From: Alloascoidea hylecoeti
Lineage: Eukaryota
DNA length: 64,000 nucleotides
NCBI GenBank assembly: GCA_001600815.1
Contig: BCKZ01000004.1
Coordinates: forward strand, 62,001-126,000
Reading direction: 5' to 3'
The notes below the pieces were generated by a model. It saw only the letters and a list, made by a program, of their open reading frames with translations, had not been told where the DNA came from and searched no databases. Shown one piece after another: positions 2,856 through 54,000 of the stretch. How positions within the stretch are numbered: the first letter of the stretch is position 1; each line of letters opens with the position of its first letter. Position numbers and translations under genes: made by a program.

Positions 2856-5747
2856 ATGTCAGCATCACGACCAGATCTCAGTTTTTCAGATAAATCTGAG
2901 GAATCTAGTTTCTTTTCATTTTTTTTGAATTTACCAAAGAAACCTTCAACAACAATTAGGATTTTCCAAAGACAAGACTTTTATACATGTCATGGTGATG
3001 ATGCACTTTTCATAGCTGAAAATATTTATAAAACCACCTCAGCTTTAAAATATCTTGGATCAAATAATGAAAAATATCCAAGTGTATCAATGTCACAATC
3101 TGTTTTTGAAAATTTCATAAAAGAAGTTGTTGTAAATGGACAACATAAAATTGAAATTTACGAAAAAGACAATAATAATAAAGGGGGTAGAAAAAATTCA
3201 TGGAAAATTGTAAGGCAAGCATCACCAGGGAATTTAGAGGAAATTGAAGATTTATTACCAATTTCAGCATCAATCACAACAAATCCAATTGTTTTAGCCT
3301 TTAAACTTTCAACAAATTCGTCACAGAAATGTTTTGGTACATGCTTTATCGATGGTAGTCAACAAACAATTGGACTATTAGAGTTTCTTGATAATGAGCT
3401 ATTTTCAAACTTTGAGGCATTGCTTATTCAATTAGGTGTTAGGGAATGTGTCGTTGCATCGTCAAATTCACAGGATTATGATATGAACAAAATTTATGGG
3501 ATCTTAGACAGATGTGGTATTGTTATTTCAGAAGTTAAATCAAGTGATTTTTCAAGTAAAGATATCGAACAGGATCTTTCAAGATTATTAAAAACGAATT
3601 CAGATAATGATAATGATAATGATAATGAGTCTGAGTCTTTTAAATCACTAATGACAAAATCATCTACATTATCCCGAAGTTTAGACTCAGCTAGCGCATT
3701 AATCAAATACATGGGTTTATTGTCATCACCAACAAACTTCAATTCATATAAATTAATCCAGCATTCCTTAGGCCAGTATATGAGACTTGATTCGTCAGCA
3801 TTACGAGCATTGAATTTAATGCCATCATCAAGAGATTCCAATAAATCAATGTCATTATTTGGTCTGTTGAATGTGTGTAAAACCGCCGCTGGATCAAGAT
3901 TATTAACGCAGTGGATCAAACAACCATTATTAAACTTAGATGATATTAATAAAAGATTAGACCTTGTTGAAGTTTTTGTTAATGATTCTCAATTAAGACA
4001 ATTGATCCAAGAAGATCATCTCTCTGGTGTTCCTGATATTCATAGATTATCAAGAAAACTAATTCGAAAAAATGCAAATTTAGAACAAGTCATTAGAATT
4101 TATCAATTAATTATTAAACTCCCTGATTTGATTGATACTTTAAAATCACCAACATCAGATTCAATAGACGAAAAGTCAAATGAATTATTAGAAGATACTT
4201 TCATTACTAATCTGACAATGTATTACAAGAATTTATTAAAACTACAAGAATTAGTAGAGACAACTGTTGATTTAGAATCCCTTGATGATCATGAATTCAT
4301 TATAAAAGCCGATTTCGATGATTATTTAACAGAGTTGAAAACTGAATTAAACTCAATTCAGGCCGATATTCAAAATGAGCATTTAAACGTAGCTGACGAC
4401 TTAAACCTCGATTCTGAAAAGAAATTAAAATTAGACAAACATCATATTCATGGTTATGTCATGCGAGTTACAAGAAATGATGGTAAATTCCTAAGAGGTA
4501 ATAAAAAATTTATTGAAGTTGGTACGGTTAAAGCTGGTATTTATTTTACTACATTAAAAATGAAGTCATTATCTTCTAGGTTTGAAGAGATCACCGCAGA
4601 ATATGAAAAAACTCAATCAACTCTAGTTAAAGAAGTTGTTTCTATAACATCTACTTACACCCCCGTTTTGGAAAAATTAAGTCTATTATTAGCTAAATTA
4701 GATGTTATCGTCAGCTTTGCACACGTTTCTTGTTATTCATCATTACCTTATGTGAGGCCTAAAATGAATCCACCCCTTTCTCAGCTTCAATTTAAAAGTA
4801 ATGAGGATGGAGAACAGGGAACAATATTAATTGAAGCAAGACATCCTTGTATGGAAGCACAAGATGATATTACTTTCATATCAAACGACGTTAAACTTAT
4901 TAATGGTAAATCTCAATTCGCAATCATAACAGGCCCAAATATGGGAGGTAAATCCACTTATATAAGACAGATTGGAGTTATTGTTTTGATGGCACAAATT
5001 GGATGCTTTGTACCATGTTCCGAAGCACAAATTTGTATTGCTGATAGTATCTTAGCAAGAGTTGGGGCGAGTGATTCACAATTAAAAGGTGTTTCAACTT
5101 TTATGGCGGAAATGCTAGAAACCGCAACAATTTTAAAATCTGCAACAAAAAATAGTTTAATCATTATTGATGAATTAGGTAGAGGTACTTCGACATATGA
5201 TGGTTTTGGGTTAGCCTGGTCAATTTCTGAATATATTATTAAGAAAATTGGATGTTTAACATTATTTGCAACACATTTTCATGAATTAACAAATTTAGCA
5301 GATGAGAATAAAGCAGTTGAAAATTTACATGTTGTAGCACACATTGATGAAAACATGGGCAACAATGATGATAATGAATCAAAATTTGAAGGCGATGAAA
5401 TAACATTACTCTATAAAGTTGAAAGGGGGATTTCAGATCAATCGTTTGGTATTCATGTTGCAGAAGTTGTTAAATTTCCCCAAAAAGTTATTAATATGGC
5501 AAAAAGGAAAGCATCAGAGTTGGAAGATACAAACGAATCAATTAATAAGAAAAAAATGTGTAATAAAGATGAAATAGTAAATGGCACGGAGATTTTAAAA
5601 GAATTATTAAAGAAATGGTCAAAAAGCGTTGATATTGATAGCATGTCAAGTGAAGAAATAATCTTAAAATTAAAAGGTTTAGTTACAGTTGATTATAAAA
5701 ATTATTTTGAAACTAATCCCTTCTTAAAAGGCGTATTAGAGTTATGA
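2856..5747 (+). CDS. MSH2: DNA mismatch repair protein Msh2 (MutS family)
   Basis: 963 aa; ITGPNMGGKSTYIRQ Walker A, STFMAEMLETA, IIDELGRGTSTYDGFGLAW, FATHFHELT, SFGIHVAEV; Msh2-type N-terminus MSASRPDLSFSD. Confidence 0.98.
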   Translation: MSASRPDLSFSDKSEESSFFSFFLNLPKKPSTTIRIFQRQDFYTCHGDDALFIAENIYKTTSALKYLGSNNEKYPSVSMSQSVFENFIKEVVVNGQHKIEIYEKDNNNKGGRKNSWKIVRQASPGNLEEIEDLLPISASITTNPIVLAFKLSTNSSQKCFGTCFIDGSQQTIGLLEFLDNELFSNFEALLIQLGVRECVVASSNSQDYDMNKIYGILDRCGIVISEVKSSDFSSKDIEQDLSRLLKTNSDNDNDNDNESESFKSLMTKSSTLSRSLDSASALIKYMGLLSSPTNFNSYKLIQHSLGQYMRLDSSALRALNLMPSSRDSNKSMSLFGLLNVCKTAAGSRLLTQWIKQPLLNLDDINKRLDLVEVFVNDSQLRQLIQEDHLSGVPDIHRLSRKLIRKNANLEQVIRIYQLIIKLPDLIDTLKSPTSDSIDEKSNELLEDTFITNLTMYYKNLLKLQELVETTVDLESLDDHEFIIKADFDDYLTELKTELNSIQADIQNEHLNVADDLNLDSEKKLKLDKHHIHGYVMRVTRNDGKFLRGNKKFIEVGTVKAGIYFTTLKMKSLSSRFEEITAEYEKTQSTLVKEVVSITSTYTPVLEKLSLLLAKLDVIVSFAHVSCYSSLPYVRPKMNPPLSQLQFKSNEDGEQGTILIEARHPCMEAQDDITFISNDVKLINGKSQFAIITGPNMGGKSTYIRQIGVIVLMAQIGCFVPCSEAQICIADSILARVGASDSQLKGVSTFMAEMLETATILKSATKNSLIIIDELGRGTSTYDGFGLAWSISEYIIKKIGCLTLFATHFHELTNLADENKAVENLHVVAHIDENMGNNDDNESKFEGDEITLLYKVERGISDQSFGIHVAEVVKFPQKVINMAKRKASELEDTNESINKKKMCNKDEIVNGTEILKELLKKWSKSVDIDSMSSEEIILKLKGLVTVDYKNYFETNPFLKGVLEL

Positions 5748-23096: not shown

Positions 23097-25056
23097 ATAT
23101 TATCAAAAACTAGAATACTCATATTGATTTTTTCATTGCTTTACTGTTAACGTTTATTAACTGATTATGAATATTGTATTTGCTATTATACTATTGTTTA
23201 ATTTTTTTTTTCTTTGTTTTTTTTTTCTTTGTTTTTTTTTTTTCTATAAATTTCTTCTAGGTTTTAGCTTGGTTTTGATTTTATTTGTTCATGTGTATCT
23301 GCTTTTTTGCTTTTTTTTTTTTCTTTTGCAAATTGATTATTTACTGCTTTGATCTTTTCTAATTCTGGATTTTTTTTCTTCATCTTACATTTTTCTTTAT
23401 AACTTTTATTATATATGGGATATAATAAACATTGGGCTAAATTATAATTATGGTGCAATTGGTCATATGCATCATTTATTTCCAGCTGGTTCTGCTAATA
23501 AAAAAAGAAGATTTTCTTTCCATACTTATTATTATATCTAGAATTATCATTATGTTTTTGTTTATTTTCATGAATAGATTTTTATTAATGAGTGTTTTTG
23601 TTTTCTCGTAAGGAGATTATTATTATATTCTTACTTATTAATTTTTGTTTCAATATCTTAATTGTTATTTAAATTACTATAATAAAATTATAACTATTTA
23701 TGCTATTAACAGGTATTTCTTTATATAGTTATTCCACCGAATTTTGGCCACCCACTCATCAATTAAAGATTTCTATAGCAGAATATAAACTATACTACCG
23801 GTATAGGCTCAAGCTGTATTCCTATAAGACCTTAGGTGTAGTAAGGATTCCTTCCAATGCGACGCGTGAAATTTAACTTCTTTTTGATGTGGAGTGCTCA
23901 CTGCTCAGTGACTCATGGATACAAAAAGAAAAAGTATACTACAGTCTAAGGAATTCCCCTTCTCTATAGATTAGAATCCAGGATCTTTAGATTTTAGAAC
24001 GCCGTCCTCCCGTGTCAATATAGCCATTGTTCTCATATAACCTTATCCTTTGATTTAAGCTTACTTCGTCCTTGCGTCACCGTATCATCTAAGTTCAACA
24101 CTCATCACCATGCCAAAATAAACCTTAATTCAAAAGGGGGGACGATTGACGATTGATTCATCCTTTAACTAAATAATGCCGCCATGCTGAGCCGTAACGT
24201 ATCTCGTAACAAGATTGTAAAGACTTCTCCGTTCCCAGGTCTTCCTAAGGAATAGGTTGAATGCACTTTCAGTTTTTCAGGAAAATGAGATAAAAGTCAC
24301 ATTCGGGAAAAGGCAAAATGAGGCTCTGCTGTTGATATATCGGGATTCCGGGGGTTTCGGATTATTGATTCAATTATTCAGTTCTACACAGAGATATCAG
24401 GAACGATAATTGAAGATTACTTAGACAAAAAATGGGTTGGGTCCCTCCTCGAAGGACCTACCTTGAATCTGCCAATGTGATGGGTGATTCCACTCCCCTC
24501 AATGAATATTTTTATACCATAAAATGTCCAAAACTCATAGTCTCAAGATCACAGAGATGTGGTGAGGAAAAAATGGCTTGTTGCCTTTTCACAAATTGAT
24601 TATATTAGTACCTATTTGATTGTTGAATGGATCAAAAACTGCTTCCTAAAAAAAGATACAAATATAATATATAATATTACCTGCAAGAAGCATATGATAG
24701 ATTTGTGTATTTTTCCGGAGATCAAAAGTTCTTGGCGTTTCTTGGTTCTCTTCTTTGTCCAGCTGAAAATATGATAAAGTCTTCGGCAAGGGGCTTGAGT
24801 GGCGTAACAGGAATTATTACAATCGCTCCATGTATTACAGAAGATCTAGTGAATTCGAAGGAAATGGTTGAAAAAATAAAATCAATTTCAAAGGCAAAAT
24901 ACCCCATCAGTGGAGCTCCAAGAAGAGCTGGTATATACTATGGCACCTGAAGAAGACATTACCCATCTTTTCACTTGAATATCTATAAAAATACAGTGAT
25001 TATTTCCTGAATTTTTAGCAAGAAATGTGGACAGTATAAGACAGTCGGCGTCACTT

Positions 25057-25590
25057 CACTTAATTTAGGCCATTGGAAGATTAGATATTCCGCCATTATG
25101 ATAAATATATATCGGCTTGTTGATGACCTAAATATTGGGACATTTTGTCGTCAAAATCTCGGCCATATCATTAATAATATTCCATTAAATTGATGAGCTA
25201 AATTTTATATTTCGCTTTGCTGACAAAACTTCGGCCATACGAGACAATAATATTCGGCTATTCTGACCAAAATTATCAACCACTTAATGGTAGGCCATGC
25301 TGAATACCAATTTTCAGCGGTACTGTTGGATATTGGGACTTGGGCAGTCAACCAGGAGTCGTTCGGCTTTTTGGAGTAACTGATTCCAAGAGGTGGTATA
25401 ATATATATATATTTAAAATTATAATCGATTAGTTTCTGTTTTAGACTTTCAATCATACGTTATTAATGTGAAGGTGGAACATTATCAATATATGGCCTAG
25501 CAAGTGACCGATATTGTGTAGTCAACATGGCCAAATATTTGGTTTAAGATATGGGCGAAGATTAGTGAACCATGTGGCCGCAACTAAGTG
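25057..25590. repeat. Dyad-symmetric array of GGCCAT-N10/11-ATATTC motifs around an AT-rich core
   Basis: Forward copies at 25068, 25161, 25233 and 25293; inverted, more degenerate copies ending ATGGCC/ATGGGC/GTGGCC at 25497, 25532, 25556 and 25579; TA-rich centre at about 25396-25425. Confidence 0.65.
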
Positions 25591-25780
25591 GAATCTGTGT
25601 GTTTCGGTTGAGGCCCGAAACTAATTTGCCGGTGCGGTTAGCTCAGGTCATTATCTATTAGTATCGGGTAAATACCGGTAACCACCTTTCAATGAACTCG
25701 GCCACCGTTAAAGTACCGTGCGGGTACACTGGACTATTACCCGTAGCTCTACCGAAACAGGAAGATTTACAATCACATGG
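25570..25780 (-). ncRNA. Unidentified structured RNA-like segment (rod with branched head)
   Basis: Nested complementary blocks 25570-76/25774-80, 25592-96/25763-67, 25600-08/25751-59 and 25665-71/25737-43, plus hairpins. G-U wobbles are satisfied on the minus strand. Confidence 0.3.
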
Positions 25781-26310
25781 CATACAGCTGCTTTGAGGTA
25801 CATACTGTAACTCAGCTTCTACTGCGAATAAGTCTAATAAATTGCTGTTCACTTGACTCTAAAGTAATGGTTCGAATTCTAAATCCTCCACTTTCTTCTA
25901 CTTGATTGAGGCGTTATAATAAAAACGTAATAATAATCTATTGAAGTGTGTAGATATTCTAAATAAATAGATATCACTACTATCTTACCAAATTATATAA
26001 AGACCATATACATGTATATTCATATTAATTTACAATTATAGACGTTTTTTATAGTTTATTAAGTTAATTTGTAATCAATTAATTTGTAATCAATTGTTAT
26101 TCCAATTGCAAATTGGCTACAATCTTAGATTACAATTCACCAGTGCAGATATCATTACTAATAAGAATATACACTTTCAAGATCAAATTGGACATATTTC
26201 TATATAAATCCCACTTGTTTTGCTCTTATTTTTGAGGTATTAATTTTACTTTTAACTTCAATTAAATTCATTAATTCATATATTTACCTTCAGCCTTTTA
26301 AATTCAAAAA

Positions 26311-28072: not shown

Positions 28073-29086
28073 TTATGAAATAACACTTGCAACCTTATCT
28101 TTGATTTTCTCGCCCAAACCTTTTGATGTTTCCAAAGTTGGGACACTAACACCTGCAACTTTTTCTTTTATTTTCTTTCCTAGTCCTTTTGGAATAGGCG
28201 TTTCGAAAGTTGGTGTATTAACACCAATAATCTTTTCTTTGATTTTTTGACCTAGACCTGGTTCAGGGGTTGCTAAAGTCGGAGCACTAGCACTATTAAT
28301 CTTATTTTTAACCTTATCGACATATGACCCAAGGTCTATGTTATTAAGTGGATCATCCCAAAAACTATTTTTTTGAATATCCTTAGCATTAACACCTAAT
28401 GCTGAAGTGGCGGCTTCATAATTATCAGCCGCAACATCACCTGCATAACTCAAATGATCTCCAGCAACACCACCCGCATAATTCAAGTTTTCATTAACAA
28501 CAGCACCGGCAGTAGCTATTCTATCTTTTATGATATTTTTCGTTGCTTCCACGTCAATATCTTTAACCACTGAACTATGTTTGGCCTTTAAAAGCCCATA
28601 TAAGCCCCCAATTTTCTCTGAGGCAACGCTTGCAAAAGAGTTCAAAGACTTTGTTACACTATAATCTTTATTTATTTGACTAGCAGCTGAAGCTCCACTG
28701 GCAGCCGCACCTGCAATATTTTCTGTTGCAATTGAGCCATACGAAGCTCCATTAGATAAAGCAACTGAACCGTAAGAAGCCCCATTAGAAGCTGCACTTG
28801 CAATATTTTCTGTTGCAATTGAGCCATACGAAGCTCCATTAGATGTTGCAATCGAACCATACGAAGCCCCATTGGAAGCTGCAATAGCAATGTTTTCTGA
28901 AGCAATTGAACCGTAAGAGACCCCATCAGATGCTGCACTCGCAATATTTTCCGAAGCAATTGAAGCATATGAAGCAATTGTGCCCGTTAAACCTTTATCT
29001 TTCCTTAAAATCTTTTCATCAATGATTCCCTGTATTGAAGCAGAAACTGCTGTGACTAGTATGAATGAATATATTGAACTTCTCAT
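28073..29086 (-). CDS. Secreted repetitive Ala/Ser-rich protein with LEA/dehydrin-like motifs
   Basis: Signal peptide MRSSIYSFILVTAVSA; 18- and 11-aa repeats GASYGSIA(T/S)ENIA.AAS; C-terminal repeats KGLG(E/K/Q)KIK(E/D)K(V/I). Confidence 0.8.
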   Translation of the reverse strand: MRSSIYSFILVTAVSASIQGIIDEKILRKDKGLTGTIASYASIASENIASAASDGVSYGSIASENIAIAASNGASYGSIATSNGASYGSIATENIASAASNGASYGSVALSNGASYGSIATENIAGAAASGASAASQINKDYSVTKSLNSFASVASEKIGGLYGLLKAKHSSVVKDIDVEATKNIIKDRIATAGAVVNENLNYAGGVAGDHLSYAGDVAADNYEAATSALGVNAKDIQKNSFWDDPLNNIDLGSYVDKVKNKINSASAPTLATPEPGLGQKIKEKIIGVNTPTFETPIPKGLGKKIKEKVAGVSVPTLETSKGLGEKIKDKVASVIS

Positions 29087-31364
29087 CGTATTTTCACAAT
29101 TAGTATTGAAATTTATTTATGAGTTTTGAAAGAATTTTTTAAAGTGGAGGGAATTTGGTCTTATAAATATATCCCAAAATCTTGCTTCAATTGTGTCATT
29201 GTTATTGCTTAAAGCTTCGACATCATCATGCATCAGCATTACAACAGTAATAATAGAATAATTGATCTTAATTATAAACTTCACAATGAAATCTTAAAGC
29301 AATTGATAGCAAGCGGTTATATATGGGGTTGATTCATGGTGATGTAACTTCACTTTGGCTGCTTTTGAACTATTCAATCAGTCGTCATATTATCTAACTA
29401 TACAAGGTAGGATCATCATAATCTGAATGATGAATTTTATTAATCAATCTTATACCGGTTAATCTTCAAATAATTACTCTTAAATATATAATTTTATATT
29501 ATCTTAAATTGACCTAGATTTAAATATTATGAATTATAATATAGCAATACATAAAGACTGAAATGTAGAAAAATATATCGCCACCTGAATTATAAGCTTG
29601 TAAGACAATATTAATTTGCAAATATATGTCTAGGAAATTCCAATCGCTTGGGTATCTCAAATAGAGGCTTTAAAAAATGATTATTCTTTAAATTTAAATG
29701 AATGTGACATCGATCATGACATGTTCATGATGAGCTAGACTAACATTAATCCTGTGACCGCATGCATATGGTGTATTCAATAAAGCATGAATTATATTGA
29801 TATCGGTATATTTTAAATAGGATTACCTCTACACTTATAAGGCCCTATATAATTTTTCAAAAGCGAAATGGAATAATCAATTCATATAATTATAAAGAAA
29901 TCTAGGTGCGCTTTCATGAATGAGAAACACAAATTTTAAAACCGGTATGGAACGATTTTATTGTTCCACGAAATATAGGTATAACTTTAAATTGCAATAT
30001 ATATTTTAGAGAAAATTCGTAATATAAAGCAATTTTTACGATATAATTAATTAAATATTCTATATCTAATATTAATATTCTTATCAACTATAAGTTTTAA
30101 GCATATGTATTGCGATTGGCTGGCGCTTTATATCTACTATATGAATCTATGTATCGAAGTATTTATTCAAAACAACAAAGGAATGGTTACATATAATTAT
30201 AATTATATTAACGCTATATCTTGATATTATTAGCTATTAAAGGTCCTCCCACAACTAACTACATGATTTATACATTTTATAGCATAAGCTTATATCAAAT
30301 GCATCAACTTTACAAGTATCACAAGTTTTGTCATTGTACGAAAATTCCGCGGCTATGGATTAAGACAGTTATAATAGCGTTATTTTACTTTAGCTGCACC
30401 ATGGACTTGAATATACCAGGTCATATTTCCACAACATTATATTAACATACACAACTAACAAAATGATAATTTAAACAATGCTAATACATATAATTATAGT
30501 TAATAATAAGAGTAAGAGAAATAAGAGTAAGGGAAATAAAAGCTTAATAAATCAAAAATAAATGTAAAACGCCAAAATGCAACCCATGAACATGACATAT
30601 CTGGAAATAAGTAAGTATAAAAACGTTAATTGATATGATACAGCTTTCTAATTAATATTGATTTTCAATTGTTGAATACAGAAAAAAGAATAGCAGGTCG
30701 TAGTGACAGACATCATATTGGATAGAAAAATCATATAATGTAAATCAACAAGTACAAGAGAGTGTTTAAATTCATGTTTATCGCATTGGCATTAGCAAAA
30801 TAGTCATGATCATAAACAAACGTTAAAGGGATTGTAATATTTTATAAAATGATGTGTGTTGAGTAATGAGAGTAGTGTAGGATGAGAAAAGTGCAATAGG
30901 TATTGTTGATTATTTGGATCGAATATTTTGTATAATATTGCAAACATGTTGAATTTCTCCAGCCTTTAATAAAGCCATGATTTTAATATAAAAAGTTTTG
31001 AATTAAAATCCATAATTTTAGAGGATGAAAGCTACTGATTGTTTAGATTTCAGGTTTTTGTGGGAGGAGTGAACATCAATATTAATACTAATATTGAGAT
31101 TGAAGCGTAAGCATTAACTGGAGTTAAATAGATTGTTAGTGTATCATAGCAGCCCATAATCTTGATAATATTGTATGAGTTTTAGGTTCAATATCGTTGA
31201 TGAATTCAAAATTTTAAATTCCTAACTAACATTAGCGAGAGAAGACAGTCGAAGTTGTCTGTAATTAAGGCCTTATACAAATAGCGATTGGGTTTGATCC
31301 ATTTTGATTGATTTTAAATGATTTCAATTGGTTATTATAAATGGGAAAATGATACTAATATATA

Positions 31365-31580
31365 TCAGTTTTTGCAGTCACCGTATCTCATTTTCGGACA
31401 ATACGGACACATCATATGTCTACATCTCGCACAATCAAACCGTTTAGCCGGCGTTATGTTATTTGTGTCGATTACAACCCCATGAGGATTACCACAATCA
31501 CAACAGTACCACTGAATTATTTTATCGTCGCTGTATTTACAGGCTCTTCCTCCTGAGTTATGTGTAATAACCATAGACAT
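31365..31580 (-). CDS. Small Cys-rich double zinc-ribbon-like protein (71 aa)
   Basis: WYCCDCG...FDCARCRHMMCPYC Cys/His pattern; GC content above the flanks; minus-strand TATAAA about 50 bp upstream of ATG 31580. Confidence 0.75.
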   Translation of the reverse strand: MSMVITHNSGGRACKYSDDKIIQWYCCDCGNPHGVVIDTNNITPAKRFDCARCRHMMCPYCPKMRYGDCKN

Positions 31581-32456
31581 TTCCAAGTATTAGAGTAAAA
31601 AACTCAAGCAGGAGGAAAGGATTATATTTATATAAAAGGCTGTGCATGAACCTGGACCGAGAAGTCTAGAACCGAGTAACGCCGGGCGTTCGATGGGAAC
31701 TCCAGACTTGGCTAAATATAAAGCCAATATTATGCTTCTTTGAGCACAATACGTGTAGACACATAACCTATCGTATTATTATCTCCTCCCGTTTGCTCCA
31801 CCCGGAGGCTCTGGGGGGTTTTAAATACCAGAAGTGTCGATTTGAATCAGATGGAAAATGCGTTTTGTCTAAAACCGGCATCATCTTGATCTTGGTTTAA
31901 TGGCGCGGATTCATTGTGAAAGTAAATGCAAATGCCCTTCACATCTAAGCTTAAGTTTAACCTTAAGTTCAAGCCGAATTGTATCATTAATTGGCCTGTA
32001 TTGTATGGAACACTCAACTTTCTCTTCCTCTTTTTCAAGGTATAATATTGTTTATTAGCATTGAAAATCCTTTCTTTGAATAATAATGGATGGTAAACTT
32101 ATTTAAGCGCTGTGGAACAACCTTTTATGTCAATTAATCCTGAAAATTGAAATACTCCACATCCTTAAATCCGGAAAGCACCGATTTCAGACTTTAACTA
32201 AAATTAGATGAAATTGTGACAGAAAATAAACTCCTTTATCTACTTTATTACTAATTAATTGATCAAAGAATAAGTGTGAGTCAAGCTTCATTGCTAGATA
32301 AAGAATGTGACCCATCAATTTAACAACACTACCTTTCTTGAATCAAAAACAAATAGTATGTTACATCGATATCTAGATATCCATATCACAATTTCAAAAT
32401 TATTTAATTTGCACGAACTCTATATGAGTCTACCCCTTTCGAACATAACACTTTTG

Positions 32457-33661
32457 CCTGTAGATATAGCCATTAGTCTTTATTTTATTAAAAGCTTGTT
32501 TATAGTAGATGGAATTTGGGGGTTGGGCCATATCACCTAACACTTATCAGGTATTTAAGTTCTTTCAAAGGGATGAACTTGAGGGTCACGCCTCTTTAAT
32601 AGCCCGTTTCAATACAGTGGCGAATGAGAGAGAGGGAAAATAAAATCCTGGTAACCCTGTAAGAGATTGAGTTCAAAAATCCTAAATGATTTCGATAGTC
32701 TCTATTTTGAAGATAGATCACTAATAATATCATTACAACTTTCATCGTCTGGCCCTATCGGCCGTAGATTATTCATTATTAGTACCACTAGAATTATCAC
32801 TGGCGGAAGGATTCAATTTAGTTACCATATGACTTGAATCCTGCCTTTGGCCATTAGGAAAACAGAGTTTGGAGCTGGACTGTGAGCGAAGCTCGAGAGA
32901 CACAGAGTAGCCATTTTGATCCCAAAAAGGAAATAAAGGCCCGGATCCCTGTTGCTTTACTCTAACTAAAAACTGTAATCAAGAGCTTCCAGTTATGATG
33001 TAAGAGTAGTCCCAAGGCGCTCACATACCTTTCTCCAAGATGTACCCCGTAGTCTCTTTCACTACTCCACATTCTCCACAACCACCAACAATAGTAAAAA
33101 CAAAAAACCATAGCAAAAGGTCACATTGAGCACTATACTTAAACCAGAAAGATTGCAAGCGATGCCGGGTTGATCCGTCCAACTCTTGTATAAACTTATA
33201 GAATACGCGGTTGATAACTCGCATCGGCGGCTAAAGAAGTGTACCAAACCAAGCCATATAGCAAACCCCGAAGTGAGTCGGCTAATGAATGTGTCACTTT
33301 TTTATGCAAAAAAAGAAGTGCTTTTTAGTTTCTTAGGTCAATTGATTGAGCAAATATATTCAGGACATGCGAGCACCCTATATTTACTACTAAAAACAAC
33401 AACTAAGAACAATATTACGGGCTATGTAAGTGTAAATTGGGTATAACTCATAGAGTATTTAGTGAATTTATATTTTTTTGTGGTGGTTGTTTCGGTATAC
33501 ACTTATTTTTGTGCGAGACCTTCACGACTACAGGTATAAAGTTTTATAATTATAATATGAACCAATACATGTATGTAGTATCTATTTTAAATATGCCAAT
33601 ATCACTATACCTAAAAATATCAATATTTATAATTATCACTATTTTTGACTTCTGAGTATGA
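32457..33661 (+). ncRNA. Candidate telomerase RNA (TER)
   Basis: Candidate template GTAACCCTGTAA at 32651-32662; boundary helix 32548-56/32643-50; pseudoknot 33318-33409; enclosing helices 32464-71/33420-27 and 32457-63/33528-34; Sm-like ATTTTTG at 33641 followed by GTATGA at 33656; many G-U-containing stems on the plus strand; no credible ORF. Confidence 0.42.
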
Positions 33662-33770
33662 CTATATAGTAAGTAAAAGATAAACTTAAGGACATCTAGA
33701 TGTGTTGTGAGTATGTATGTAAATAACAGAACAAATATGTTTTATAAAGTGAATTTAGGGTTAACATCAA

Positions 33771-35305
33771 TCAGAACAAAAGATCAAAGTCATCATTCTT
33801 TGTAGAAGTGTTTGATGTAGTGAGAGTATTTCCAGTTGAATTCTTATTATTCCATAAAATATCAATAGATGATTCTTTGTTTAATTGTTGTAAAGTTTTA
33901 TTTTGTGGAGTCGAGCCTCGTGAAGGGACGGATGAGGATGGTGTACTATGTGTTTTGGCCTTAGCAGTTGAAAACAACGAGGAGAATAAATCATCAGAAT
34001 TATTGTTATTTGATGGTTTTGGGGTAGGGTTTGACGACTTCATAGAAGTTGAATTTCCTACTAACCCAATGGAGTAATTGGGCCCTTGATTCACAGGAGT
34101 AGGGTTGCTATATGTCTGTGGAGATGATGTAGTGTTAATTGTAGTAGACGATAAAAGTGAAGAAAAATCACCCATTGCTGAAGAATTATTTGTATTGTTT
34201 GCGACATTAGTTGAAGAAGAAGAGACTACAAACAAATCTGATAATGTATTTTGGGTAGTGAAGGATGTTGATTTGTCCTTTGGTCTGGCATCTGCAGAGA
34301 CAAAATCATCAAAATCGTCATCCTCATCATCTCCAACGCTATTTGATTTTATATTATTATTAGATTTAGGAGCAGGCAAAGAAGAAACTGGTTCATCATC
34401 AAATGAGAATAGATCGGGGATGGCTTCTTGTGGTTTTGATCGTGGATTTGGTCTTGAAGTTTGTGGTTTTGGATTAGCTAATCGCGAATTTGGACCTCTA
34501 GATCTGGAATTGGTAGAAGTTGACCTCTGTGTTGAATGCTTTTGAGAACGAGCAACAGCAGCCCTTCCCGCCCTTGTACTAGCAGCTGGGGCAGGAACAT
34601 TATATTCCTCGAAATTAGAGGATCTTCTGTTACTTGAATAGTCGGAATTATCAAAAGTTCTTGATCGTTGTCCTGAATATCTGGAAACAGCATCACTTGA
34701 AACGCCTCGATATTTACTAGCATTCTCCTGAGCCTTTCTTCTTTCACTTCTTATCAAACCATCGTCGGATAATAAATGGATTAATTCTTTAGCTCTGTTT
34801 CTAACGTTAATACCTTGGTCTCTGCCAGAATCATCAATATAATCAAAACGTCCAAGGACTTTTATATATGCAGAATTAGCTTTGGCATCGTCGATAACTC
34901 TTTCACTTCCATTTTTTATTAAATATTCCAATAATGTTAAACTTTTATAAATTTGTCTCCATTCATGAGCTTCTTTTTCTTGAAATCTTCTAAAAATAAA
35001 TTCTATTACTTGTTGTCTTGTATCATAGGCATAAGTCCCTTCGGCAATTTCTCGCATTAAAGTACTACTGGCACCCCATGGCTCATTATTCGTAGCTTCT
35101 CTGACTTTTGCTTCGAGTTCAGTCAAGTTAAGAACAGCTATAATATTGTCTTAGATAATGTTTATAACAAATAACAAACTAGATAACAAACTAGATAACA
35201 AACTAGATAACAAATAAAAAGCCACGTACCATTTTGAGCTTTTCTAACATAAGCTTTAACTTCATATAATTGTAAACTATTAATTTTTTCTTTAATTAAA
35301 TCCAT
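33771..35305 (-). CDS. ENT3: Epsin-like ENTH-domain clathrin adaptor Ent3; exons 35305-35230 and 35137-33771
   Basis: Spliced N-terminus MDLIKEKINSLQLYEVKAYVRKAQNAVLNLTELEAKVREATNNEPWGAS is Ent3-type; WRQIYKSL.LLEYLIKNGSE; GRDQGINVR; acidic DDFDDF; DLF/DLL clathrin-adaptor motifs. Confidence 0.93.
35138..35229 (-). other. ENT3 intron (92 nt) containing a 12-bp tandem repeat
   Basis: GTACGT donor and TAG acceptor restore the frame; (ATAACAAACTAG) x3.7 at 35171-35214 on the plus strand; no canonical CTAAC. Confidence 0.85.
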
Positions 35306-37480: not shown

Positions 37481-39085
37481 TTACATATAAAAGCTAACCG
37501 AACAGAACATAACAAGAATTCCACTTGGGCAGATTCGAAGAGTATATATACAATATTCTCTAGTTGCTTCAAGTGTCTAATTTTTATTGAGCTTAAGATG
37601 AAGTATACGTATGCCCACAATTAACTGATATTATAACTAATTGGTGTGTCCATGGATTGATGATTATTTATCTCATTGTCATTTAATGTTATTGGGGTTA
37701 AAATGGAAATTTGGGGCTTTGATTTAAATCATTATAATTATTAATTGGCTATAAACTATAAGTATATAGATCTATAGACGCTATCCTATAGATACATAGC
37801 GCTATAGTTAATGATTCTCGAAATGCATTATCTAAAAAGAAAGAATCGCAATGCATATAATTGTGGATATATTATCAACAATATAAATATAACATTTTCA
37901 TAAAAGATGTATAATAGAGTTACTAATTCTAAGAATGCTTGAACCATTAAGCTTCGGACAATTACAATTACAATTTCAACAATTATAATGCAGTATATGT
38001 AACCTTTATTTCTTTGTTTAAATCCATGATTCCAATATCTAAAGAACAGATTTGAATGCATCATCTGCAACTAAATTAAGATATGATCAAGAGTTCGTTT
38101 ATATTGAATTTGCATTGCAATTGACAAATACATCAATATTAATGGCAATGATTACCAAGATACCAAATTTAGCTAGTTATATAAATATTTATTGTAAATA
38201 TGAATGTATATGTGCACTAATATTGATATATATTATAGTTAACTCTTTATACTTATAAGCCGATCGATAATTAATACCATGATCAATGGCATTGGAAGTT
38301 TCATTGTTAACGCTGTCAAAATTAACAATACAAGTAGACCACTTAATATGTAGATGCATGTGTACCTAGATGCAGCAATTGCAATATTAATTTCTTTCCT
38401 TACTTTTCTAAGTAACAATCCTATTCTATTGTGGGCATCCAGTTCGATAGCTAGTTATTTCTTAACATGAGTTATTAATATCATAAACAGTACCATAATA
38501 ATTAGGTATATATTCGTGTATCATCACGATAGAAATTTTAATGGAATTAAGTTTATAGTTCTTTATTAAATTTTAAACATTTGATCAAGACACCTGGATA
38601 TGCATAATGACGAGAAGACTATATATTAATGCATCCAAACAAAATAAATGCGTTACATGAACATAAACGACATTTATTAGCCCGATTTTACAATAAGAAC
38701 CGCTGTAAAATTCGTTTACATATGGAGGAAACAGTAAAAACCACTACATATGTAGAGCTTAGAGATTTATTAAAAGAAAAAAATAACTCCACATTATTAC
38801 AAAAAAGACTTAGCTATAACTGATATTATTAAGTGTTTGCAATTGACAGTGAACGAATGATACAGCGAAATATCTTCTAAAATTGAGCAAAATACCATTT
38901 GCTTAACGTGACGAATGTATCTTGTATCCATGCGCTAATACTTGTTTCCTTCACCGTTTAATATCAGTATATCCTCTGACAACCCGCCAGTTCATAGCTT
39001 TAATAGCTATAAAAGTGTTCCATTTAACACATTCTAACTATATACCTATCTACATATATATTTCCTATAATTCTTAATCCTATCT

Positions 39086-51022: not shown

Positions 51023-54000
51023 TATTCAAAAGAAAGGTAAATCTACCTGTATAATTGACTAAAAAATAAGAGACTATGACAGATTTATATAGCTAAATAA
51101 TGATAATATAACTGATATTTATGATTGATTGCCGAGCATTTATAGTGTGTCGTAAGATAGACTATATCTACTGTCTGGAACCAGCTGTGTCCATGTGTTC
51201 TTGAGTGTATATGACTAGTCAAACTTACTTATGTATGTCGTTGACTAGCTATACAAAATGTGCACTTATATACCGGTAGCTCATAAGTAACTATGTATGC
51301 TATAATTGATTAAGAAATATATTTTGCTATGCATATATAGATCGATATTTTGAAATGCCATTTCGATTCGAATTCATATAGGGGCTATAGATAGCACACT
51401 CACAGTTGGTAAGTAACTTATCCTATTGGTATATATATAAAGTTATATGTAAAATTCCTATCTTATAATTATTATGGTTGATGGATATAATTAACAAAAA
51501 ACTCCCATCGAGGTTATATTTATTATTTCCATTAGCTTTTGATTCCCCATAATGAGGGACTCATTATTGAACTTAGGTGTAGCCATAGGATCTTGCCATT
51601 TTTCATTAATATTTGAATTCGCATTTCGCATTTTCCAAATAAATATTTTTAACACAACTAAGTTGAAATTGGCCATAAATTACAATCTTTTGTATATGTA
51701 TCTAGTTACAGATATTTTAACATTATAGTATTACTATATTATGTATATCTGCTAATGAAAGTGTATAAGATGATTATAGGCTATAGGCTACATGTGAAAC
51801 AAACATATAAGTACTATATAAAACTTATACCTATATTTCAAGAGTATAAATAATCTATATGTACATGCACTTATGATGACGATTAAGGAATATTTTTAAT
51901 CTGCCGGATGTATTATATACCAACAAGATAATCCGTAGTGATTTTTTTTTTATCCTTAGGCTAACAACTATCATATAATAGTTCAAACGTAAAAATATAT
52001 AGTAAATAAATTTAATAAGATTCAGAGTAACACAATTTGCAAACGGCCACGGCTAGTGTTAAGAGCTATTGAAATTCAGTAAACTTTAGCCCCTTTAAAC
52101 TTAAAAAAAGAAAAATAAAGTAGCACAACATGTCAAAATTGAAGACCTGAAAATGGTGGCCTTATATGCATAAGGATCTATTTCTTGCAATTGGCAACAG
52201 AAAATACAATTAAGATATGTGTACTGGCTAATCAGTTTTGCGATTGGTTCATAAAAGCTCTTAAAATTCTTAACAAGGTTGTGAATTTGAATCAACTTTT
52301 TTATTTTTATGATCATTACATTTTAATTCAAAGACTATATATATTTATAAGGCTCTATAGCTATAAATTTAAATTTAAGATACCTACACCAAATTAACCA
52401 GGGAATATGATTAGTCTATCCTTTTCAAAGAAAATTAACCTCCCTATAACTAATATAGTTAAATTAACAATTAATTTTCATTTAACTAGGAACTTTGTTT
52501 TTTCCATTTAAAATTTTTGCAATTAGAGATACATACACAATCTATATAAACAATTATATATGTATCCCAATACTCTTACTCGTCCGAGTTTATAATTTCT
52601 TTTAGATATTTCAATCAATAGTGATAACAGAACCTTCACATCTTCTCCTTTTCATATGCATGCTGTATAATTTCACTCATACCCAGATCCCAATATTAAT
52701 ATTAATACTAATGATAGATGTAAACGACCAAGTAATCAATAAGATTATGTGTTTTAAAAAATTTGGAACTTTATGAAAATTTTTAAATGATTTCTGGAGA
52801 TGTCGAATGATATAATTATAACTTACAATTAATCTGTGGATATAGACCTGTGTATATCCTCACCTCTAACCTATCCAATTCAAATATATAGCATAAGTAT
52901 ATCCTACACCTTAATCCTGATTATCATTTATTTCATCATCCAAAACGAAAGCCCATTAAATTATTTTTCTAAGCATACCCCATTATCTGTTGCCAATGTA
53001 ACAGAACAAGTCTTAAATATAAAACCCACGACGCCACTTAAACAGCCATTTGATATTTTAGCATTTACATATGCATCAGCTAACGACACCATTTGGTTTT
53101 AACCACTTGATACCCTGAAAAAGTATCACGGTCCCCAGATTAACCCATATGTCATATGGCATTAACAATAAGCTTTTATCTCATCCCGTTAAACCAGAAA
53201 ATTAGCTCGGAATTTAAAATGCAAAGGGGTACCTGATGGATTTTAACATGTCAGAAACTAACCTTAATGGTAGTAATATCATATGCAATTAAAGTTAATC
53301 AACTAAAATAAATAAATGTGGTAATTATGATTGATATATGGAGTCAAATGATTTAACCGCTAGCTATAGTTTTAAGAGAGCGGTTTGTTGGCTAATTTAT
53401 TTTTTTGGTTAAGAATCATTGTATTAATTGAGTTTTTTCTGGATATAAAAAACTAGTTGCAGAATATCTACAACACTTTTATAGATAATTAATTAACTCA
53501 GACTTAAATTTATATATGGTGTAGGTAGGGAGACATATTACGTATAGACAAATTAGATTTCCGCCACCATATCGCAAAACAACTAATTATAAGAAGAAAA
53601 AATATGTTATTCAGTAGAAGAATTGCTGAGAATGTTTAAACAGAATAGGTATCAGAAAATATTAAATTAATAATTAATTAGGAGATTCATTTTTAGTTGA
53701 TGCAGAGTTGACTAATTCCATTGTTTTAGTGCATATTGAAGTTGCTTTTTGACCAATGTTTTGGCAAATTTAAGGAATTTCACTGTTTTTAATGATCCAC
53801 GGCCAAGAATGATAAAAATGGAATTGTTGCTCTAACTGTCCAACAAATATTGTAATTAGAAGGTTATATGTATAATTAATAATTTGGAATCTGCAATATT
53901 TTCATGTTCAAGTGTTTTCTCTCTAGTATTTATTAGCTGAGTGAAAATGGTAAACGTCATTTAGTATTACCTTAGATCGATAATACACGCATTGGATGCA

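Follow-up and report, generated by a model that had tools for sequence, protein, structure and literature searches.

Outside the Saccharomycetaceae, Candida and Yarrowia groups, most budding-yeast lineages lack an annotated telomerase RNA (TER). TAACCC is the conserved template core of the Yarrowia-clade TERs as described in PMC6746865. The supplementary table of PMC7857110 gives TTAGTCAGGG and TTATACAGGG as Yarrowia repeats, TTCAGGG and TTTCAGGG as Lipomyces repeats, and TTACAG2-8 as the repeat of S. pombe. According to the main text of PMC12449055, the A before GGG is retained in 26 of 29 species having a GGG repeat together with TAY1. The ancestral fungal repeat is taken to be TTAGGG. For most Ascomycota outside the Saccharomycetaceae, 3' ends of the splicing type have been reported. 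In S. cryophilus and S. octosporus the 5' splice site is described as lying 14-27 nt past the Sm site (PMC4299874). The TERs of non-budding fungi, S. pombe TER1 among them, carry a P6.1 hairpin with a 4-bp stem and a loop of the form NUNGN.

The locus compared here with these systems lies in a 64-kb stretch of yeast DNA (the window; G+C 31.8%, zero N), in which a preliminary description had proposed a telomerase RNA gene at 32457-33661. This candidate stretch falls inside an ORF-free gap (Table 1). The description had located it between a zinc-ribbon-type ORF and ENT3, and the flanks are indeed a 71-aa zinc-finger-like ORF and an ENTH-domain gene. Our analyses favour, with a probability of about 0.6, the reading of 32457-33661 as an ordinary intergenic spacer of an AT-rich budding yeast; the features that had pointed to a TER occur at chance frequency, and coding, Rfam and repeat signals are absent from the gap.

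Table 1. Positions of the gap, its neighbours and the proposed RNA elements, counted from the first base of the window.
Feature	Position	Strand	Remarks
Zinc-finger-like ORF, 71 aa	31365-31580	-	Weak B-box match, under the Pfam cut-off
ORF-free gap	31581-33770	.	Between the zinc-finger-like ORF and the ENT3-like gene; length ~2.2 kb
G+C-richer core	32401-33400	.	G+C 0.39, top of 298 fully noncoding 1-kb windows
Proposed core-enclosing helix, 7+8 bp	32457-32471 with 33420-33427 and 33528-33534	+	
Proposed template-boundary helix	Arms 32548-56 and 32643-50	+	Bulged 8-bp helix, one bulge
Template-like 12-mer GTAACCCTGTAA	32651-32662	+	1.5 copies of an 8-mer; would specify TTACAGGG
Proposed H-type pseudoknot	Stem 1 33318-23/33371-76; stem 2 33330-36/33403-09	+	Drawable
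Sm-type site ATTTTTGA	33641-48	+	
GTATGA and canonical 5' splice site GTAAGT	33656-61 and 33669-74	+	
TAACCCTAA, 1.5 copies of the canonical CCCTAA unit	33755-33763	-	7 nt past the ENT3 stop codon
ENTH-domain (ENT3-like) gene	33771-35137 and exon 1 at 35230-35305	-	

The affiliation of the host was assessed from two proteins encoded in the window. The nearest relatives of MSH2 (2856-5747, plus strand) were 56-59% identical, a BLASTP search among 5.8 billion clusters giving none above 56%, with the best named matches those of Sugiyamaella, Lipomyces, Nadsonia and Dipodascopsis (52-55%). In a 22-row maximum-likelihood tree, MSH2 fell outside the Lipomycetaceae and grouped (support 99/98) with Nadsonia, Sugiyamaella and unnamed sequences; its branch measures 0.88 against a median of 0.21, and its amino-acid composition is deviant. 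This long branch and deviant composition suggest a fast-evolving, AT-driven lineage without a close sequenced relative. The RSN1/PHM7 homologue showed 39-49% identity to homologues of many yeast orders, the nearest RSN1 being 47% identical, and taken together the nearest relatives of MSH2 and RSN1 were 42-59% identical; the host is thus a budding yeast for which the collections searched contain no close sequenced relative.

No ATG ORF of at least 100 aa occurs in the gap, and none of its 15 stop-to-stop ORFs of at least 50 aa reached the Pfam cut-off. The sole ATG ORF of at least 60 aa in the core gave a single match among 1.84 billion representatives, and homology to it was rejected, the similarity being to a short motif repeated in a 2650-aa protein. 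A 90-aa gap ORF obtained a recognition score of 1522, where known families reach 2300. A coding role of the small gap ORFs was accordingly rejected on the Pfam, recognition-score and representative-search results. At gathering scores, Rfam had no match in the whole window; at E values up to 10, over 8 kb and over 1.5 kb, its 4227 models returned noise only, with the telomerase family absent. Telomerase families in Rfam include Sacc_telomerase, Telomerase_Asco, Telomerase-vert and Telomerase-cil. The Rfam result is a weak test, since homology searches are reported to fail outside the Saccharomycetaceae. A tRNA scan of the gap found none, and a search within the window found no second copy of the gap sequence. 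With no Rfam, tRNA, repeat, Pfam or homologous-ORF signal, the gap thus looks noncoding.

Several further features of the surroundings were recorded. Exon 1 of the ENT3-like gene (35305-35230) is in frame with the main exon across a 92-nt intron (35229-35138) bearing the signals GTACGT...TCTAAG...TAG, and within this 5' intron, at ~35165-35215 on the minus strand, a unit close to TTTGTTATCTAG is repeated in tandem about four times. At 28073-29086, on the minus strand, a 337-aa ORF without a Pfam match consists largely of Ser/Ala/Gly-rich repeats (ASYGSIA...ENIA...), and may encode a secreted or wall protein. The segment 31590-31830, upstream of the zinc-finger-like ORF, has a G+C of 0.38-0.47 and folds somewhat better than its shuffles (z of -1.84 for 241 nt; one 200-nt window reaches -2.8 and -2.6 on the two strands).

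Read as spacer, the gap would be divided among its two neighbours. Its left part would act as the promoter of the zinc-finger-like gene, with TATATAAATATAAT preceding the minus-strand ATG by ~30-45 nt, the right part would supply the 3'-end signals of the ENT3-like gene, and the G+C-richer core would lie between the promoter and terminator parts. The template, boundary helix, enclosing helix and pseudoknot would be coincidences found by eye in 1.2 kb, and the Sm/splice-site pair would be a terminator-type sequence, A-rich and with TATATA, seen in reverse complement. Read from the minus strand, the bases of that pair give TATATA and an A-rich run, 85-130 nt past the ENT3 stop codon; such a combination resembles yeast 3'-end signals. 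Three observations stand against a plain spacer: the rank of the core G+C above all 298 noncoding 1-kb windows, which it leaves unexplained; the presence on the right strand of an Sm-type site with GUAAGU, at a chance of roughly 3%; and the match of TTACAGGG to the TT-spacer-AGGG pattern, with TAACCC being the Yarrowia-clade template core.

The raised G+C content is also the starting point of an alternative that we regard as unlikely, namely that the core at ~32500-33300 is some other functional element, in which the 12-mer is incidental; it could be the decayed remains of a former gene, a small-protein gene that evolves very fast or, on either strand, a long noncoding RNA. In favour of such an element, 100-nt bins of this part have a G+C of 0.39-0.47 against a noncoding mean of 0.304 (the core at 32401-33400 exceeds both this mean and the coding mean of 0.330), and of the two strands the minus strand has the more stable fold. 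A similar ORF-free block, with G+C up to 0.383 per kb and a longest stop-to-stop ORF of at most 91 aa, is found at ~23800-25900; it counts in favour of the spacer reading as well. Against it stand the 0 of 15 ORFs with a Pfam match, the core ATG ORF without real homology, the 90-aa ORF scoring below the level of known families (1522 < 2300), and the lack of both a fold signal and an Rfam family.

That the stretch is a plus-strand telomerase RNA of ~1.2 kb, extending from ~32457 or earlier to ~33648, appears doubtful. In this RNA, the template 5'-GUAACCCUGUAA-3' would align the DNA end on its 3' GUAA and copy AGGGTTAC, giving (TTACAGGG)n, and 3'-end formation would follow the route of fission yeasts and the Candida group, with a first splicing step at GUAAGU or GUAUGA and then trimming to the Sm site. 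In favour of such a role, the motif sits in an ORF-free stretch, with ~195 nt separating it from the proposed 5' end and ~980 nt from the Sm-type site; it contains TAACCC and would yield an AGGG-type repeat. TTACAGGG fits the TT-spacer-AGGG pattern of Yarrowia and is one base from the Lipomyces repeat TTTCAGGG. Among the literature matches listed, TTACAGGG appeared as a telomere sequence in S. pombe telomere papers only; it is absent from the text and supplementary table of PMC7857110 (for part 2 of that table, as a search term), and from the main text of PMC12449055 and the TelFinder supplement.

The template-like motif has, on the other side, plentiful rivals. CCCTGTAA has a single occurrence in the window, the unpaired probability along the 12-mer ranges from 0.03 to 0.98, and an alternative reading with a 9-nt period, CCTGGTAACCCTG at 32647-32659, overlaps it. 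TAACCC itself occurs 17 times in the window. When a template-like word was defined as TAACCC with a period of 6-12 and a terminal repeat of at least 4 nt, six such words were found at five loci of the window, three of which are noncoding, including 32651-62. A looser search, for any CCC-bearing, G-poor repeat with a period of 6-26, placed between one and six template-like repeats 300-1700 nt upstream of every one of the five pairs of Sm-like and 5' splice site words in the window. Given this abundance of rival templates, the 12-mer alone carries almost no weight. Noncoding words of the stricter kind were seen at 37688-37700 on the minus strand (TAACCCCAATAAC, period 9) and at 53134-53147 on the plus strand (CCCAGATTAACCCA, period 10), the latter in a 5.2-kb ORF-free gap.

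The copy of the canonical unit at 33755-33763, TAACCCTAA, is situated in the same gap, 1.1 kb from the 12-mer and on the opposite strand. It is probably due to chance, though it is a competing template, and it illustrates the ease with which template-like motifs arise here. Its use as template UAACCCUAA (33763-33755) by a minus-strand telomerase RNA running leftward through the core and producing canonical TTAGGG repeats is most improbable: the 1.5-copy canonical motif is perfect, the minus strand is the more stable one and TTAGGG is the presumed ancestral repeat, but about 0.8 such 9-mers would be expected per window from base composition, no pair of Sm and 5' splice sites occurs downstream before the zinc-finger gene, and, as the motif is 7 nt past the ENT3 stop codon, the RNA would have to start inside the ENT3 coding sequence.

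The 3' motifs cited for the plus-strand TER, ATTTTTG at 33641-47 followed by GTATGA at 33656 and GTAAGT at 33669, are as described. In RNA form, AUUUUUGA is followed by GUAUGA 8 nt later and by the canonical GUAAGU 21 nt later, ~980 nt past the 12-mer; the latter spacing is inside the 14-27 nt reported for two fission yeasts, and the reports of splicing-type 3' ends in most Ascomycota beyond the Saccharomycetaceae also speak for the TER reading. A possible branch site, GTTAAC, follows at 33760-65, with CAG at 33772-74, but no canonical CTAAC branch site was found downstream of GUAAGU. The two verified introns of the window begin with GTACGT and GTATGT and have their branch site 10-13 nt before the 3' splice site. 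The window holds 175 Sm-like words and 51 GTAHGT words, and the two kinds occur within 30 nt of each other five times on both strands, compared with 3.7 +/- 2.0 times in shuffles. From five pairs per 128 kb and an 800-nt target, an AU5GA Sm-type site with GUAAGU on the right strand, 700-1500 nt past the motif and in the gap, would be expected by chance with a frequency of roughly 3%. This pair and the raised G+C of the core are the only somewhat unusual features of the stretch. The G+C-rich part does not extend to the proposed pseudoknot, closing helix or 3' tail, and the final 120 nt ahead of the Sm-type site (23-27% G+C) resemble plain spacer.

All strings quoted in the preliminary description are present where it placed them, and its ten helices can be drawn: seven are perfect complements, two (ATATAGCC/GGCTATGT and GTGCTT/GAGCAC) contain one G-U pair, and one (CAGGTATTT/AAATCCTG, the proposed template boundary) has one bulge. 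Their excess over chance mostly did not hold. Pair probabilities were computed in a nested fold of exactly 32457-33661. The strings of the boundary helix are there, but its pair probability is at most 0.01, and the best duplex available to the 10 nt before the template (-6.0 kcal/mol) was equalled at 28.4% of 3000 random noncoding positions. The enclosing helix reaches a probability of 0.70-0.90, its outer part being missing from the minimum free energy (MFE) structure, yet 24% of 150 dinucleotide shuffles produced a 7+8-bp enclosing helix with at most one G-U pair. In a competing G+C-rich helix of 9 bp, 33417-33425 can pair with 32599-32607 instead. Of the four arm stems, three have pair probabilities of 0.58-0.99.

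The pseudoknot at 33318-33409 is likewise drawable, its stems having probabilities of 0-0.03 in the nested fold, a type of fold in which the two stems exclude each other; however, pseudoknots of equal quality number 478 on the plus and 515 on the minus strand of the 64 kb, i.e. 993 per 128 kb of strand or ~7.5 per kb per strand, and 109 of them have a U-rich loop 1 and an A-rich loop 3. On the plus strand, the whole stretch has an MFE of -261.8 kcal/mol (z +0.32), a stability equalled by 16 of 24 shuffles; on the minus strand, the MFE reaches -281.4 kcal/mol (z -0.35). Twelve local 200-nt windows gave mean z values of +0.19 and +0.12 on the plus and minus strands, respectively. The earlier argument that G-U pairs favour the plus strand applies solely to the two helices that contain them, while the minus strand folds better overall. 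The preliminary description had identified no clear P6.1 hairpin, and a search of the plus strand over 32457-33661 found no 4-bp NUNGN hairpin, of which chance would provide 0.40 per kb per strand; this weighs little, because budding-yeast TERs lack P6.1. No three-way junction was identified in 32457-33661. In summary, neither the helices nor the pseudoknot nor the template motif rises above chance level.

Weighed together, the TER reading has on its side the template-like motif and its repeat, the Sm and splice-site arrangement with GTTAAC...CAG behind it, the highest noncoding G+C of the window and the probability of the enclosing helix. Against it, none of the structural elements exceeds chance, the stems of the boundary helix and of the pseudoknot reach probabilities of 0.03 at most, the three-way junction, the P6.1 hairpin and an Rfam telomerase match were all not found, the sequence before the Sm site is spacer-like, the downstream CTAAC is lacking, and a low prior meets plentiful rival motifs. 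In a genome of at least 10 Mb (~12 Mb), a given window of 64 kb would contain the single TER gene with a prior probability of ~0.5%. A chance model would give ~0.002 loci per window combining a TAACCCT-type template-like word, ORF-free room, a well-placed Sm and splice-site pair and a G+C-rich block; for a true TER, the probability of this combination may be put at perhaps 0.04, since only some yeast lineages keep both GGGTTA-type repeats and splice-type 3' ends. Prior and likelihoods would give the TER roughly 10%, uncertain about three-fold either way, and our rough Bayesian estimate is 10-20%; the identification is more likely wrong than right.

Searches for the predicted repeat and for transcripts in environmental data were made as well. 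At least 121 stretches of (TTACAGGG)3 are present in metagenome contigs, a number uninformative on the telomeres of this yeast. Among 120 (TTACAGGG)n loci listed, G+C ranged from 0.26 to 0.68 and the arrays were mostly of 3-9 units and internal; none of these listed loci had blastn similarity to the window. Short internal arrays of 3-14 units are widespread among the metagenome matches listed, many in densely coding, bacterial-looking contigs. About a dozen arrays were inspected, all of them short, in dense bacterial-looking contigs and none yeast-like. Several arrays touching contig ends among the matches listed proved internal or bacterial. Two loci (L018 and L098) share a common flank, and the flank of another (L061) reads by eye like a bacterial sugar kinase. 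The locus closest to the window in tetranucleotide use among the matches listed (L012, r = 0.93) carries densely packed ORFs. No RNA run was found to contain the stretch, and in three metatranscriptome contig sets of one study (a wood decay metagenome), 0 of 30 bins of 31300-35100 were covered; as the ENT3-like gene was also uncovered, the yeast itself was not seen in those metatranscriptomes.

What the example chiefly illustrates is that helices picked by eye, together with a template-like motif of 12 nt, are insufficient to identify a TER in AT-rich yeast DNA; this one window contains several templates as good as the proposed one, and its equally good pseudoknots run into the hundreds. Should the stretch nevertheless be a TER, which we hold to be quite unlikely, the telomeres of this long-branch budding-yeast lineage would be (TTACAGGG)n and the 3' end of the RNA would be cut by the spliceosome beside the Sm site. 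Such an 8-nt repeat is not listed for any budding yeast in the tables searched (PMC7857110, TelFinder). A TER from a deep lineage, if real, would add data on the divergence of TTAGGG-type repeats and on RNA 3'-end formation.

Compared with described TERs, the candidate gave no match to the Rfam telomerase families at E values up to 10. The Yarrowia-clade TERs described by Cervenak et al. (2019; PMC6746865) likewise have a TAACCC template and TT-spacer-AGGG repeats, the order of core-enclosing helix, boundary element, template and pseudoknot that is proposed for the candidate, and candidate 5' splice and branch sites accompanying an Sm site near the 3' end at ~950 nt. This likeness is one of described features and not of compared sequences (PMC6746865), and those TERs rest on a 10-species alignment, RNA-seq and deletion tests (PMC6746865), whereas the candidate is one sequence; in addition, the essential three-way junction of the Y. 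lipolytica TER (PMC6746865) was not found in the candidate. With Schizosaccharomyces TER1, whose RNA of 1.2-1.35 kb (Kannan et al., 2015; PMC4299874) compares with ~1.2 kb here, the candidate shares like-arranged motifs for the described spliceosomal 3' cleavage beside an Sm site (PMC4299874), and the TTACAG2-8 repeats given for S. pombe include TTACAGGG (PMC7857110). S. pombe TER1 has a P6.1 hairpin, in contrast to the candidate, and the host is, on the MSH2 tree, a budding yeast, unlike Schizosaccharomyces. If the TER reading were true, TTACAGGG would fall between Lipomyces TTTCAGGG, Yarrowia TTAGTCAGGG and fission-yeast TTACAGG(G), and the candidate would lend support to the spacer-insertion model of how yeast telomeres evolved and to the view that spliceosomal 3' processing arose early in the subphylum.
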